A stretch of 64,000 nt of DNA from Eledone cirrhosa (GCA_964016885.1 CAXHJY010000964.1:1-64000); one strand, 5' to 3'. Shown: positions 4,194 to 61,384, counted from the first letter of the stretch. The notes: generated by a model not told the origin, from the letters alone. Numbers and translations: made by a program.

Positions 4194-4520
4194 TTTTTGA
4201 GTTTATGTTGGTTGTATGCAGGCTGGAGCACTCGACGAAGTGCGCAGGTTGGTTTGGTTACTCCGGAGTAGTGTAAAATACAGTTAAATAAAAGTCAAAT
4301 GATTAAAATTTAGCTTCGTTTATTACTGCTATATATATATATATCAGTGACAGCCATCTTTGGCTGTGACCTATTCAGGCAGTTTGAATTAGTATGGTAT
4401 AGACAAGTACATATGTTGTTTAGGTGTATAATATTGTCAATACTCTGATATGCCCAGTTCCTTGTTGGGTTGTTAATTTAATGAGGAACTGGAGTCATAT
4501 GACTCCAGTTCCTCATTTTA
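4194..4520 (-). mobile_element. PLE family B terminal repeat (pLTR), inverted relative to the adjacent ORF, with decayed hammerhead at 4325-4383
   Basis: Homologous to 32489-32719. Minus strand reads actgc CTGAATA stemII tGATA (TA)n gcagt. Confidence 0.75.
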
Positions 4521-6245
4521 AAAAATGCATCACGACCACCTACAAAAAGGTAATAGAGATGGCACTGACTGAGACAAACGCGGCCGGAAAAGAAATCGCC
4601 AAGTCCCTTAAATTACACGACCGAACCGAACCTTTAAGGATAAAGACCCGGCACTTTACCCTGAAGGACCATAAGGGAAACTTCCTCAACAAACCATCAG
4701 TCAGACTTATCAACCCCACTCGTTCTGACATCGGCTCTATCAGTAAGAAGATCCTGGATAGAGTTCTACCATCATTGCGGGCTGCCTCACCCTTCCACTC
4801 TGGAGCAGAACATCTGAGGCAATATCATGGTTCCAAGAATTAGCCGACAAACACCACACTTGCTTCCTGCAACTCGACATAGAAAACTACTATACCCCTA
4901 TCTCGGAGCCCCTCCTGAAGGACGCAATTAACTTTGCCAGGAATTTTACCACCATTACCGATGCTGAGCAAGTTGTTATCCTCCACGCTCGTAAGACCTT
5001 TCTATACCACGATGGATCTTACTGGATCAACAAGAAATCTCAGACCCCATTTGACGTTAGCATGGGAGCGAGTGACTCGGCTGAAATTAGCGACCTTGTG
5101 GGCTTGTACATCCTACATCACCTGAAGAACCTCTTTACCGGCCTAACCGGAGGTTTATACCGAGACGACGGCCTCTTCGCCCTGCATAAGGTTAACCCCA
5201 GAACCACCGATGGGTTTCGGAAAAACTTAAGCTCATTCTTCTCTAATCTATGATTTAGTATAACTATAGAATCTAATTTGACTAGGGCCAACTTCTTAGA
5301 TGTCACTCTCGACCTAGATACTTCCCTCTATTACCCGTACCCCAAACCTAACGAGTCCCTTAGATATATTAATGTTAATTCAAACCACCCCCAAAACCTC
5401 ACTGATAACCTAGTAAAAAGCGTCTCTATTAGAATATCTGGCCTCTTCGCCAACAAAGATATTTTTAACGCATCTGCCTCCTACTACAATGACGCCCTCG
5501 CCCGCAGCTAATTTAAAGAAAAGATAACATACCTAGAAACCACCGCAAGATTGCAGAGGAGGAATAGACATAGGCAGATTAGCTGGTACAACCCTCCCTT
5601 CAATAGAGAGGTCTCTACACCGATAGCTAGGATTTTCTTCACTTTGCTGAAATTACACTTCCCCATACAACATAGGTACCACGCCATCTTTAATAAGAAC
5701 ACAATAAGACTCTCCTACTCCACCACACCTAACCTAGCTAGGAATATAGCCAACCACAATTCTAAAAAATTAAATAAGCCAACCACCTCCGAACCCAATC
5801 CCCGGACTGGGGTTCTGTGTAATTGCCTAAATAAGGAAGCATGCCCACTTGAAAACAAATGCCTCACAAATGATATCGTATACAAATGCGATGTCATCTC
5901 AGGCACCGATGATTGCAAAAAAACTTACATCGGCATGACCTCCAACAACTTTAAGACCCGTTGGTATGCCCATACCCACTCCTTCAGCAGACCGGACAAA
6001 TCAAACCAGACAACACTCGCCTCCTATGTTTGGGACCTCAAAAGGAACTCCACCCCCTTCACGCTTAAAAAGAAAATACTCCAGAAAGCGCGCTCTTACA
6101 ACGGAGGACACAAGGGCTGCGACCTTTGTATCTCAGAGAGCTACGAAATTTTATTCGCCAAGGGCCCGCTACTGAACAAATTCTCTGAATACTGCCCGAA
6201 CTGCATGCACAAGAACATTGCAACTTTCAAACACTTTAAGCCAGT
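4521..6245 (+). pseudogene. 5'-truncated PLE RT/GIY-YIG ORF with frameshifts and stops (YRDD type)
   Basis: Motifs RLINPTRSDIGSISKKILD, MGASDSAEISDLVG, GLYRDDGL, FLDVTLDL, CNC..CPL..CL, IVY..TYIGMT..FKTR, CDLC..E across ORFs 4424, 5062, 5278 and 5551. Confidence 0.9.
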
Positions 6246-6561
6246 GTATATATATATATATATATATTAGCCAGTGTGTGTATATATGTATGTATATATA
6301 TGTATATATGTATGTATATGTGTGTATGTGTGTGTGTATATATGTATATATATGTGTATATATATATGTGTGTATTTATGTGTGTGTGTGTATATGTATG
6401 TGTGTATATGTGTGTGTATATATATATATATATATATATATATGTATATATGTGTATATATATATATATATATATATATATATATATATATATATATATA
6501 TATATATATATATATATATATATATATATATATATATATATATATATATATATATATATAT
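6246..6561. repeat. Mixed (TG)/(TA)n microsatellite
   Basis: Direct reading. Confidence 0.9.
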
Positions 6562-7150
6562 TTCGTTTCTGAATTTGTTTAGCAAGATTCTTTATCTGAA
6601 ATCGTGTGTTGAAACCGATATTGTTATACTTTGGGAGGGTCATGTTGCCAATAAGAAACACACGCACCAGTTGCTTTCACTTCAATTTATTATATATTTA
6701 TAAATTTACAAATTTACAAACTTATAAATTTCTGGTTGGTTGGTTGGTTCCACAACCAGATAGTTGTTTATATATATAGTCATAGTCCTTTCGTCACACA
6801 CTCTGTGACCTCTTCAGTGACTGGGGATTCCTTTCTTCGTTTCTGTGCCTTTCCTTTCTTCTATCCTACGCCATTTTGTTCACACACAGAAACAAAATGG
6901 CGTAGGATAGAAGAAAGGAAAGGCACAGAAACGAAGAAAGGAATCCCCAGTCACTAAAGAGGTCACAGAGTGTGTGACGAAAGGACTATGACTATATATA
7001 TAAACAACTATCTGGTTGTGGAACCAACCAACCAACCAGAAATTTATAAGTTTGTAAATTTGTAAATTTATAAATATATAATAAATTGAAGTGAAAGCAA
7101 CTGGTGCGTGTGTTTCTTATTGGCAACATGACCCTCCCATAGTATAACAA
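6562..7150. mobile_element. PLE family A solo terminal fragment: minus-strand pLTR 6562-6880 plus inverted pLTR 6881-7150
   Basis: Both halves match the pLTR at 7160-7420 and 14350-14669. TA runs on both sides. HHRs at 6778-6822 (-) and 6949-6993 (+, core mutated to CTAAAGA). Confidence 0.85.
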
Positions 7151-7320
7151 TATATATATATTGTTATACTTTGGGAGGTTCATGTTGCCAATAAGAAACA
7201 CACGCACCAGTTGCTTTCACTTCAATTTAATTTATTATATATTTATAAATTTACAAATTTATAAATTTCTGGTTGGTTGGTTGGTTGGTTCCACAACCAG
7301 ATAGTTGTTTATATATATAT

Positions 7321-7365
7321 AGTCATAGTTCTTTCGTCACACACTCTGTGACCTCTTCAGTGACT
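7321..7365 (-). ncRNA. Type-I hammerhead ribozyme, family A
   Basis: agtca CTGAAGA g gtcaca-gagtg-tgtgac GAAA gaac TA tgact. Stem I 5 bp, stem II 6 bp, minimal stem III. Confidence 0.75.
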
Positions 7366-7676
7366 GGGGATTTCTTTCTTCGTTTCTGTGCCTTTCCTTT
7401 CTTCTATCCTACGCCATTTTGTTTGTGTGTGGGTTGCGTGCTCAGTTTGCGCATGCGCATGCGCCACATCCGGGTGTCTGTGTGTGTTTGTGTTCATTTT
7501 TCTATTTTTCTATTTATATTTTTCTATTTGTTTATTTATTTATTTATTTATTGTTGGTTGGTTGTTTGTTCTATGTGTGTGTGTGTTTTCATTTTGTCTT
7601 GTGTGTGTTTTCATTTTGTGTGTGTTTTCAATTGTAAGTTGTTTGTTCTATGTGTGTGTGTGTTTTCATTTTGTCC

Positions 7677-59562: not shown

Positions 59563-59565
59563 CTA

Positions 59566-60200
59566 CTAGCCGAATTACCCGCGCCTTGCTGCGTTTGTAA
59601 GAAAATGATGATTGATTTTAAATCAGTGATATAATTTATGGAGTAAAACTCTGCATTTCAATATTAAAGACTTCCAAGCCGAAGGCTCATCAGGCCGGTG
59701 CTTATCCCGGTTTCCATGGCGTTAAGCGACTGAGAGTACAAGACTCTCCCTGGACAGGACGCCGGTCTATCGCAGGATTAACTCCCCAGCTACAGCTGGT
59801 ACTCACTCACAGCTGAGTGTACTGAAGCATCGTGAAATAAAGTGTTTTTGCTCGAGAACACAACACAGCAGCCTGCCCAGGAATTGAACCGACGACATTA
59901 CGATCGTACGGCAACCATCCTAACCATCAGGCCATGTGGCTCCACCATTTCAATATTACTCAATGTAAAATGCAATCCATGAAAAATTGGAAAATATTTT
60001 TTTTTTGTAATATATCAAATCAAAATTAAATTATTAATCTTATTCTTATCTTGTTTTTGTTGTAAATAATTTTTTTTTAAATATCCATTCAAAACATTAG
60101 TGAATAGGCATCAAATCTTGTTATTTACGAATGGTTTAAATTTCATATAAATCGTAGGGAAAAAGTTTCAACGGGGCATTTCTGCCCCGGGGAACCCTAT
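59566..60200 (-). mobile_element. Helitron-like 3' end on minus strand
   Basis: a|ctag at 59566 followed by the GC-rich hairpin cccgcgccttgctgcg. The 5' limit is uncertain. Confidence 0.55.
59665..59945 (-). mobile_element. tRNA-derived SINE with V-domain-like centre
   Basis: Minus: tggcctgatggttagg (A box), ggttcaattcc (B box), ctgcgatagaccggcgtcctgtccaggg, ggaaaccgggataag. Confidence 0.75.
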
Positions 60201-60521
60201 ACACATTTATATATTTATTTATACACATATATATATATACACACATATATATACACATATATATATATACACATATATATATACACATATATATATATAT
60301 ATTGGTAGACGGAATAGAAAATGCTGACAAATTGTTCACAGTTGAAAAATGGTTTAATTAGGAATAAAAGAGTATTAGTGATTGTATGGGTTAGTATTCA
60401 GTTGTGGTTTTAAGTTTTTAAGTTTTTACCGGTTGCGCATTTCTAAGTGCTTTTCAAAAATAATTTTGAGATAGAGTGTCCGTGCTGTTTGCTCTGATCT
60501 GATTAGTTTGGGGAATTCTAC

Positions 60522-60739
60522 CTGTTTTTATGTTAAAAAAGTGGCTCCAATTTGCAAAAATTCTTGTGGTCAAAACAATTTTGATTGGTCGGTAGAGGTC
60601 ATGTGAATGTAAAAAATTGATTTTGCGCCAAGACTGTTTTTATGTTAAAAAAGTGGCTCCAGCAAAACTTCTTGTGGTCAAAACAATTTTGATTGGTCGG
60701 TAGAGGTCATGTGAATAAAAAATTGGTTTTGCGCCAAGA
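60522..60739 (+). repeat. Two tandem ~110-bp copies
   Basis: ctgtttttatgttaaaaaagtggctcca...tttgcgccaaga occurs twice. Confidence 0.85.
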
Positions 60740-61113
60740 TTGAGAAATGACTCTTTCACAACAAATATGTGTGTGTGTGTGTGTGTGTGTGTGTGTGTGT
60801 GTGTGTGTGTGTGTGTGTGTGTGTGTGTGTGTGTGTGTGTATAGCAGAGTAATTCATGGTGGCAGGGATGGTCAGTAAGAATGTGTCTGAAAGCAATGGG
60901 GGGAGGGTATTTTAGCATGTCAAAAGATATTTTTCAGCTTTTGTCTTATACAGAGAAGTACGTGTGTGTGTGTGTGTGTGTGTATATATAAGTCTCTTTG
61001 TATGTTGATGTACGCGTGTGTATGTGTGTGTGTATATATGTGTGTGTGTGGGGGGGGACCAGTATTCTTTTCCCCCTGGTAAAATGGTGTACATTATTCG
61101 ATTATATATATAT

Positions 61114-61384
61114 AGTTAAAAGATGGTTAAAGGAGTTCCATGTATTTTATTATGCGCATTTCAAAAACAAACATCATCATGCAATAATATTTGTGTTTTC
61201 ATCAGATAAAACAGGAGGACATGATATGAAGGCTAAAAAACACTTGTGGATAGTGCAGTTTTAAATCAACATATCATCTTTTGTTCTTATATATTATGTA
61301 TACTCCAGTCCTACAAACTGTAGGGTGCTTCTTATCCGATATCTGCATTGCTTTATTGTACTACAATAAAACTCACCTCCTACA
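61114..61384. mobile_element. PLE family E mini-insertion (inverted pLTR 61114-61274, tail 61275-61384)
   Basis: Matches 23455-23611 and 28470-28577; contains an HHR. Confidence 0.85.

Follow-up and report, generated by a model that had tools for sequence, protein, structure and literature searches.

Clustered PLEs with type-I hammerhead motifs in (TA)n DNA of Eledone cirrhosa, including candidate long-arm variants

Introduction

Nearly all Hydra families of PLEs carry canonical hammerheads and insert into (TA)n, and microsatellite bias has been tied to the Neptune linker (Craig et al. 2021, PMC8557442). The usual search descriptors allow a spacer of up to 17 nt, and half cores at 35-50 nt have been noted (Craig et al.). 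High hammerhead diversity inside one genome was already described in 2014 (Cervera and de la Pena, PMC4209133).

All canonical PLEs, Hydra included, are reported to carry hammerheads, and inverted copies belong to normal PLE structure. A tandem pLTR-ORF-pLTR transcript holds two hammerheads, the palindromic stem III of each pairing with that of the other, so that the pair can cleave after NUH. Cleavage by PLE hammerheads is slow and, in one PLE, requires the element's protein. AT-rich DNA is nicked by the GIY-YIG endonuclease together with its Cys-rich linker; reverse transcription then begins at two sites, leading to a tail and inverted copies. In an Anolis PLE, insertion in vitro does not depend on cleavage, and none of the RNA-seq ends falls at the cut. 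Minimal dimeric PLE hammerheads are reportedly also described in work of Lunse et al. from 2017.

Here we analyze a 64,000-nt stretch of the Eledone cirrhosa assembly (GCA_964016885.1 CAXHJY010000964.1:1-64000; the window), of which an earlier note covered 4194..61384. Family letters are our own labels, with no one-to-one match to those of that note.

Results

Between 4194 and 61384, a curated census gives 30 complete type-I hammerhead motifs in 12 families, 24 of them with a perfect core (C3-G8 or U3-A8) and 19 of these 24 with at least three contiguous stem I pairs; the earlier count of more than 25 copies stands, many copies being pLTR duplicates of one insertion. To these are added two decayed motifs (D, J2) and five half motifs (four in family I, one in A'), and two perfect motifs lie beyond these coordinates (109-, 1514-). 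There are about 15 PLE families, in line with the roughly 14 families, nearly all ribozyme-bearing, claimed before, but RT or endonuclease remnants occur in only 10 (A, B, C, D, E, G, H, J2, K, M), while F, I, J, N and O are placed among PLEs by hammerhead and TA-flanked ends only. The cluster consists of seven Hydra-type, two Neptune-like and one unplaced canonical PLE, together with about five 3'-end fragments. Every family has a type-I hammerhead of its own, which lies in the 3' UTR or pLTR on the sense strand, and element ends adjoin TA runs. The loci are as follows (long-arm motifs of K, M and X are given further below).

73..115, minus: Z hammerhead, outside the earlier span; perfect core, stem III actagt, helix II region 14 nt
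4199..6246, plus: A, Hydra-type RT-EN remnant 4523-6240
near 4376, minus: A, inverted pLTR on the 5' side with decayed hammerhead
6561..14666, minus: B, Neptune-like PLE, YVDD, CX4CxxC linker; ORF 11462-7677; tandem and inverted copies
6817-, 6954+, 7360-, 11639-, 13162-, 14415+: B hammerheads, stem III 2 bp, non-palindromic
15202..19050, plus: C, Neptune-like PLE, YLDD; ORF remnant 16254-17748
18868+, 15349- (inverted copy): C hammerheads; U3-A8 core, stem III accggt, stem I 2 contiguous bp
19100..21085, minus: D, canonical EN+ PLE remnant, YVDD, atypical linker; ORF 20945-19932
near 19322-19295: D decayed hammerhead
21524..22135, plus: F 3' end; hammerhead 22004, closed 4-bp stem III (monomer type)
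22532..22892: G inverted pLTR pair; hammerheads 22663-, 22833+ (one core change)
23110..23298, second locus 28898-29085: I, two 3' half hammerheads in inverted orientation, with GAAA, a long stem III and GUC
23445..28582, plus: E, Hydra-type ORF 25006-27144; inverted copy 23456-25012
28390+, 23542-, another copy 61205-: E hammerheads; helix II region 36 nt, stem III atgcgcat
29461..29580, minus: O long-arm hammerhead, 29577, one core change; 95-nt insert with weak fold, stem III acaattgt
30082..30676, plus: B' subfamily 3' end; hammerhead 30515
30894..32383, plus: G, Hydra-type ORF remnant 31109-32051
32252+, 30959-: G hammerheads; helix II region 11 nt
32487..32790, minus: A' pLTR; perfect hammerhead 32636, helix II region 26 nt, stem III atatatat
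32727, plus: A' inverted half motif
33559-34188: F second copy; hammerhead 34056; family F has no coding remnant
34345..42281: H, two mutually inverted Hydra-type copies, 97.8% over 7.8 kb
34435-, 38267+, 42092+: H hammerheads; helix II region 31 nt
45076..46172, minus: J 3' end; hammerhead 45162; no coding remnant
46266..47630, plus: J2, Hydra-type EN C-terminus 46266-46487 and 3' UTR; decayed hammerhead near 47476
47886..51381, minus: K, near full-length Hydra-type PLE; broken ORF 50856-48547; 368-bp direct pLTRs at both ends
55105..56854, minus: M, sister family to K; Hydra-type EN remnant 56846-56153, followed by 3' UTR
56990-58703, minus: B' second copy; hammerhead 57163, stem I lost
58703..59145, plus: N 3' end; hammerhead 58957, A9 -> U; no coding remnant

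The motifs have the type-I order of stems I-III around the CUGANGA, GAAA and NUH core. A strict descriptor finds 16 of them, against a mean of 0.05 and a maximum of 1 in 200 local dinucleotide shuffles and no match on reversed strands. The motif lies on the sense strand past the stop in 9/9 families with a linked ORF and their own 3' UTR. The earlier description as type-I pLTR hammerheads is right. Across 14 family representatives, pairing is found in 50/56 cells of stem I (null 23.9), 32/42 of helix II (17.0) and 27/28 of stem III (18.5), and none of 10000 permutations reached these values, a test that is partly circular since the motifs were curated. In stem I, each position has 4-5 different pair types across families. 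Absence of both cleavage and covariation had been named beforehand as evidence against the ribozymes; in the same partly circular test, the stems co-vary. A search of Rfam returned no hammerhead among 95 matches with E up to 1, and clear motifs were likewise missed in 4/4 control loci.

One could object that such motifs arise by chance in AT-rich DNA, or that assembly errors at TA runs and inverted repeats inflate their number: the window is AT-rich, long near-identical inverted repeats are present, and at least two likely chance matches sit inside ORFs (10942-, 40504-), the former, a strict match, being probably fortuitous. The shuffle and reverse controls and the strand and position rule refute this for the motifs; the K sequence recurs in independent public runs, and inverted copies are what PLEs normally produce. 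We regard this explanation as having next to no chance of being correct.

Several candidates were set aside. CUGANGA boxes at 59693-, 61786+ and 56032- and in ORFs, partnerless or antisense, were dropped from the census. Family L is a CUGAUGA half lacking the GAAA half, and its reading by eye as a permuted hammerhead was rejected because the helix II partner is absent. Some families have a palindrome in common (G, O, X; A', H), but dimers between them were rejected, as the exchanged stem I arms would not pair. A non-LTR retrozyme, a non-coding tandem array with one hammerhead per unit, was also rejected: the ORF-less F, I, J, N, O and X are single or inverted, never head-to-tail arrays.

All six stem III palindromes listed in the earlier note are present: acaattgt (G, O, X), atgcgcat (E), acatatgt (K), acacgtgt (M), accggt (C) and atatatat (A', H). 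The statement that stem III is usually a short palindrome, a form suited to dimers, is right for most families and fails for B, F, J and N, whose stem III is non-palindromic. Exact even palindromes are commoner here than in the published Hydra set.

The 17/17 element 3' ends that were inspected continue into TA-rich runs. The earlier note spoke of one (TA)n region; (TA)>=4 runs account for 11.8% of the window and are spread over many blocks. SINE-like and RTE-like pieces share these blocks. The elements display the pLTR direct repeats, inverted 5'-truncated copies and tail expected of PLEs, with inverted copies in B, C, E, G and H and a direct repeat of 368 bp in K. In C, E, G and H, the sequence beyond the cut is longer in direct than in inverted copies, by approximately 37-91 nt.

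The coding remnants follow the EN+ PLE order, RT and then a C-terminal GIY-YIG. Pfam GIY-YIG matches A, B, C, D and B', C alone passing the cut-off, and RVT_1 matches C and D, both below it; Pfam gave no RT or EN match for E, G, H, K and M, which are homologous to A and have YxDD and GIY-like motifs. The YRDD-type families A, E, G, H, J2, K and M have 24-57% protein identity. RWKT is found in K and RWRA in H, and DKT replaces DKG in E, H and K, the other Hydra-type families being truncated there. The CxCX5C linker is present in A, E, G, H and K, with F for the third C in M, and CxxC..CxH in A, E, G, H, K and M, J2 being a decayed C-terminal piece only. By eye, these families lack CCHH and match Hydra-1_Obim in their motifs.

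Hydra-clade PLEs (PMC8557442, including Hydra-1_Obim) likewise have RWK/RWR, DKT, the CxCX5C linker, CxxC and CxH and the C-terminal GIY-YIG, as well as a type-I hammerhead on the sense strand close to the 3' end, insertion into (TA)n, and a U or A inserted on both sides of helix II. Our Hydra-type families show the canonical hammerhead and (TA)n insertion, with helix II of K and M outside the published range and the J2 motif decayed. The K repeat unit, ~3.1 kb, is unlike published Hydra-clade PLEs. Since the seven families share the Hydra hallmarks, they are, as judged from their protein motifs and an EN-domain tree, one Hydra-type clade and not unrelated RTs; the tree was built on EN domains and included relatives, and Hydra membership otherwise comes from motifs.

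B and C have a CX2-5CxxC linker and, by eye, a CCHH endonuclease; they resemble Neptune-type PLEs in linker, CCHH-type Cys/His, TA flanks and short hammerheads. D differs, its CX4CX6C linker lacking the CxxC part, and is left as an unplaced canonical PLE. The EN-domain tree places B, C and D far away from the Hydra-type proteins. The earlier note saw an unusually diverse hammerhead library from unrelated RT types (YRDD, Neptune-like YLDD, YVDD) converging on one target; in its strong form, these RTs would have acquired hammerheads independently and met at one special locus. The motif types do exist, three of them with two linker types side by side and with B, C and D far from the Hydra-type proteins, but "unrelated" overstates the case for seven families of one clade. 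A hammerhead is also present in 52/79 unrelated Hydra-like loci, the trait is held to be universal in canonical PLEs, and the SINE-like and RTE-like pieces occupy the same TA blocks. Hammerheads and (TA)n targeting being published for the Hydra clade, inheritance is favored over convergence, and we consider the strong form very improbable.

The cluster as such is expected biology and mostly known; the modest new structural variant is a set of motifs, overlooked before, in K, M, O and X, in which 90-96 nt separate CUGANGA from GAAA.

1395..1519, minus: X hammerhead, outside the earlier span; CUGAUGA at 1514; no coding remnant
47938..48055, minus: K copy 1; CUGAAGA at 48050, 90-nt insert 48043-47954, stem III acatatgt
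51057..51174, minus: K copy 2, upstream pLTR; CUGAAGA at 51169
55143..55263, minus: M hammerhead; CUGAUGA at 55258, 92-nt rod 55251-55160, stem III acacgtgt

K, M and X match exactly in both core boxes, in the palindrome of stem III and at NUH, and their inserts are closed by a 6-8 bp helix. In X, a 7-bp helix closes a 96-nt insert with two hairpins inside, and stem III is acaattgt. Stem I is 5 bp in X and in M, with predicted cuts after 1400 and 55148, respectively; in K copy 1, with a predicted cut after 47942, it requires a bulge. A long-arm descriptor finds two strict motifs, or four with relaxed stem I, against 0 in 200 shuffles. Relative to shuffles, the inserts fold with z of -3.75 (M), -5.0 (X) and -2.3 and -2.6 (K), whereas that of O (z +0.7) folds no better than shuffles; with its core change, O is the weakest of the four.

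K and M compare with z 4.9 over the insert and -0.8 over the upstream UTR, so their inserts are homologous and their upstream UTRs are not. A K covariance model matches M (E ~3e-5) with the two outer helices paired, the first pair showing a G-C/A-U swap. The inner helices are out of register on alignment and the inner-insert z is only 2.3; covariation there, good by eye, was lost on alignment and is not claimed. Sequence comparison revealed no similarity of the X and O inserts to K, M or one another, and a short helix common to X and M is unsupported by sequence similarity.

Compared with a contig of another organism, at most 2/90 positions of the K motif differ, against 16/125 upstream (p 0.005; 0.026 leaving out an indel cluster). 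We rely on this single contig because the count over all rows (2/119 vs 19/205) is depth-biased; summed contig depth peaks over the K motif and is not taken as evidence. The long-arm insert is, on these aligned contigs, conserved in other genomes. Three runs have a base at 47960 that restores the closing helix, and no core variant of K is listed in four runs. The sequencing runs listed as containing the sequence include no RNA run. Among related Hydra-like loci, the CUGANGA-GAAA spacer is 10-25 nt in 63/64 matches; the K covariance model had 0 matches in the 79 loci, and a relaxed scan of the 27 lacking a hammerhead, many of them short contigs maybe without the 3' UTR, gave no convincing long-arm motif.

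The helix II region spans 12-26 nt in published Hydra hammerheads (26 rows, hand count), 11-36 in A', E, G and H, and 90-92 in K and M. The minimal dimeric PLE hammerheads in the available part of PMC4209133 share the type-I topology, the extra base after A9, the short palindromic stem III and many families per genome; their helix II has 6-8 bp and that part mentions no 90-nt insert, unlike K, M, X and O. Spike-moss PLE-X1 hammerheads (Craig et al. file S2) also have a long helix II insert between core halves, but it is shorter (~50-55 nt) and the motifs are marked non-canonical. The discontinuous Clec2 hammerhead has 150-1500 nt between its core halves; it differs in being type III, with the insert in helix I, and in a mammalian mRNA.

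Discussion

Based on these data, we propose, as the probable reading, a PLE pile-up in a TA microsatellite whose endonuclease-bearing elements include long-arm motifs that would be structured, selected and able to cleave as a protein-assisted dimer. In K, M, X and probably O, a long-range helix would close helix II around a structured 90-96-nt insert, presumably maintained by selection, and the core would still assemble and cleave as a dimer assisted by protein. The most likely role of the insert would be that of a docking or folding module used by the element's protein. We suggest, tentatively, several origins within this host (K/M, X, O) for this selected, structured helix II domain.

The long-arm motifs may instead have lost cleavage, the structure being a protein-binding or reverse-transcription signal of which the core letters are part. 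Stem I of K is indeed weak, with 1 contiguous pair, or 4 allowing a bulge, and a change at 48055 that removes one more pair is found in about half of the depth of run X1 and in all three other runs. The cleavage-side arm of K can form an 8-bp helix with the insert, and in K copy 2 this fold is ~2 kcal/mol lower than the core-open fold. Counting against our proposal, stem I is not formed in the core-open monomer folds of K, M and X. The core change in O and the Anolis element, which inserts in vitro without hammerhead activity, point the same way. The exact core boxes, palindromes and NUH of K, M and X, the K core free of listed variants in four runs and the 5-bp stem I of M and X speak for retained function, and we hold loss of cleavage to be unlikely.

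A retained spliceosomal intron, whose removal would give a compact hammerhead and thus a switch, is more improbable still. PLE pLTRs can carry introns, and the end of the Drosophila virilis Penelope intron falls at helix I; in M, a 68-nt stretch can be picked out by eye that starts with GT at 55244 and closes with a pyrimidine-rich AG at 55177, and its excision would leave a longer hairpin. However, K has no GT at the aligned position or among its listed variants, X has none at the helix end, three more AGs lie just upstream of that of M, and the inserts fold into stable RNA structure.

On the same tentative reading of several origins, the domain may be the binding site by which the element's protein turns on cleavage, or instead a switch controlled by splicing or folding. 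With the long-arm motifs, natural type-I hammerheads would range about threefold beyond the published Hydra set. Because long-arm motifs escape the usual descriptors, some PLEs listed as hammerhead-less may have a split one, and current searches would undercount PLE ribozymes. The cluster also contributes new members to the small Hydra clade, and K/M versus their short-arm relatives E/H form a ready pair for the role of the hammerhead in PLE transposition. Lastly, the core of family C, overlooked before, is the already known U3-A8 variant, which is also carried by related loci L016 and L079 and, in PMC4209133, by Cercyon.

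Hammerheads in the PLE cluster

Runs of (TA)≥4 make up 11.8% of the window, which is AT-rich and of animal type, and fragments of Penelope-like elements (PLEs) lie between them. A type-I hammerhead descriptor that demanded perfect CUGANGA and GAAA boxes, 6-60 nt for the helix II region and 4 bp or more in stem I gave 16 matches; 200 local dinucleotide shuffles averaged 0.05 matches, and the reversed strands had none. A second, looser scan, which took GAAA together with the palindrome as its anchor, and a reading of the non-repeat segments yielded a curated census of 12 lettered families and 30 complete motifs at 4194-61384, besides 2 decayed and 5 half motifs. 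The core is perfect in 24 of the 30, and in 19 of these 24 stem I has three or more contiguous pairs; two extra perfect motifs lie in the window outside this interval. The hammerhead-rich PLE cluster described in the earlier note is real. Matches that were ORF-internal or partnerless (window position and strand: 10942-, 40504-/36001+, 59693-, 61786+, 56032-, 53003-/53615-) were removed before the count. A perfect-core, hammerhead-like match in the B ORF (10889-10949, minus strand), with a 7-bp stem I and a poor helix II, sits just before an in-frame ATG and is probably due to chance.

Covariation, whose absence the earlier note had counted as part of a refutation, is present. In a comparison of 14 family representatives, paired cells number 50/56 for stem I (23.9 with partners permuted among families), 32/42 for helix II (17.0 permuted) and 27/28 for stem III (18.5 permuted), values reached by 0 of 10,000 permutations; this test is partly circular because the motif set was curated, the shuffle test being the independent control. 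Nine families have an ORF linked to a 3' UTR (B, C, D, E, G, H, J2, K, M), and in all nine the motif lies past the stop codon on the sense strand; in family A it lies in the adjacent inverted copy.

Family C has a UUGAAAA core, i.e. a U3-A8 swap, and only 2 contiguous stem I pairs. This core is a known variant, reported in Cercyon PLEs (PMC4209133). It also occurs in other Hydra-like elements from metagenome contigs (L016:2400 and L079:1769).

Relationship to the Hydra clade

Ten families retain coding remnants. Seven of them (A, E, G, H, J2, K, M) are homologous, with 38-57% identity in the RT and 24-54% in the EN region, and carry RWK/RWR, DKT, CxCX5C and CxxC..CxH wherever the region is present. 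Craig et al. 2021 (PMC8557442) list this same motif set for the Hydra clade, describe canonical hammerheads and insertion into (TA)n in almost all of its families, and name an octopus as the source of one; the seven families resemble the clade in these listed features. The earlier view that unrelated RT types converged on one target is therefore weak, and the cluster itself is of a known kind.

Families B (YVDD) and C (YLDD) have a Neptune-type CX4CxxC linker, which D (YVDD) lacks. An EN-domain tree that took in 19 of 79 related loci, its bootstrap values not yet settled, paired K and M (100/98) as well as E and H (95/87), and united A, E, H, K and M in one group (93/91); G was placed elsewhere, and B, C and D fell on long, unreliable branches. 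No coding remnant was found in F, I, J, N, O, X and Z, which are assigned solely by motif and TA-flanked ends.

Long-arm hammerheads

In four families the core boxes are far apart: 90 nt in K (two copies), 92 in M, 96 in X and 95 in O. A long-spacer descriptor that asked for 4 bp or more in stem I matched M and X, and relaxing stem I added both K copies; either version gave 0 matches in 200 shuffles. The ends of the inserts pair in folds, with fold z-scores of -3.75 (M), -5.0 (X), -2.3 and -2.6 (K) and +0.7 (O). Three features count against activity: stem I of K pairs only with a bulge, a competing 8-bp helix exists in K, and core-open monomer folds of K, M and X came out with no stem I. We regard these predicted long-arm hammerheads as a modest structural variant.

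For comparison, a metagenome-contig scan provided 79 distinct loci kept from 511 relatives, which contain near-duplicates and so are not 79 independent families. With its spacer widened to 160 nt, the same descriptor matched 64 motifs, spread over 52 of the 79 loci; the spacer was 10-25 nt in 63, and the remaining one, antisense, had 46 nt. Published Hydra hammerheads span 12-26 nt over 26 rows by our own count of file S2 (PMC8557442), in contrast to 90-92 nt in K and M; two spike-moss motifs in that file reach about 50-55 nt. A limited literature check found no description of a PLE hammerhead with a 90-nt helix II; Lunse et al. 2017, the Terminon paper or supplements may already contain variants with a long helix II.

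Homology links the inserts of K and M (z 4.9) but not the UTRs upstream of them (z -0.8). A K-based model recovers M (E about 3e-5, a rough value), with the two outer helices paired and the inner ones out of register. Similarity z tests related the X and O inserts neither to those of K and M nor to each other. When the K pLTR was compared with 4 of the 10 public runs listed, just two variant rows fell inside the motif, one restoring the closing helix and the other weakening stem I. A contig of another organism differs from K at no more than 2 of 90 motif positions, against 16 of 125 upstream (p 0.005-0.026). An intron would be one explanation of the insert, but it suits M only and we consider it unlikely.

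The helix II regions of A', H, E, K and M, one group in the EN tree, measure 26, 31, 36, 90 and 92 nt and exceed the 10-25 nt of the related loci; that of G, which groups elsewhere, is 11 nt. This suggests that helix II was lengthened within one lineage.

Proposed mechanism

The sequence itself shows where the motifs lie and on which strand, as well as their cores and stems. The 6-8-nt stem III palindromes allow no hairpin and self-pair with -3 to -10.5 kcal/mol; stem III of B does not self-pair. Minimal PLE hammerheads cleave weakly, as dimers, according to PMC4209133 and PMC6765202. A dimer partner could be supplied by same-strand tandem pLTRs (K; B; H); inverted copies, being on the opposite strand, could not partner in one transcript. 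Since helix II projects outward from the core, it would tolerate a long insert, and the insert would be retained for binding protein or steering the fold. For an Anolis element, PMC11167929 reports that the hammerhead depends on the element's own protein and is dispensable for insertion in vitro, the tail being explained by two RT start sites.

Neighbouring sequences

The window also holds the following features.

499-818: piece flanked by TA, which contains inverted repeats and, at 611 (plus strand), a single GAAA-palindrome half
2100-4020: two copies of a 0.9-1 kb unit that carries 37-nt subrepeats, with a TA run between the copies
22192-22320, 22930-23016, 52387-52549, 59690-59950: pieces in the same TA blocks as PLEs
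34352-42175: 7.8-kb inverted repeat (97.8%), two near full-length H copies
42483-43850 (minus strand) and 61975-62980: non-PLE LINE fragments with a YADD RT and a PHD-like match
51382-51609: short tandem duplications of K 5' UTR sequence, upstream of K's upstream pLTR
52989-54147 (minus strand): family L, TA-flanked tandem unit of about 600 nt

The piece at 499-818 is likely a truncated PLE end, and no hammerhead was found in the 2100-4020 dimer. Family L ends about 20 nt after CUGAUGA, with no GAAA half. The four pieces within the TA blocks are SINE-like and resemble octopus repeats; the LINE fragments are RTE-like. The H inverted repeat is either a real PLE structure or an assembly fold-back.
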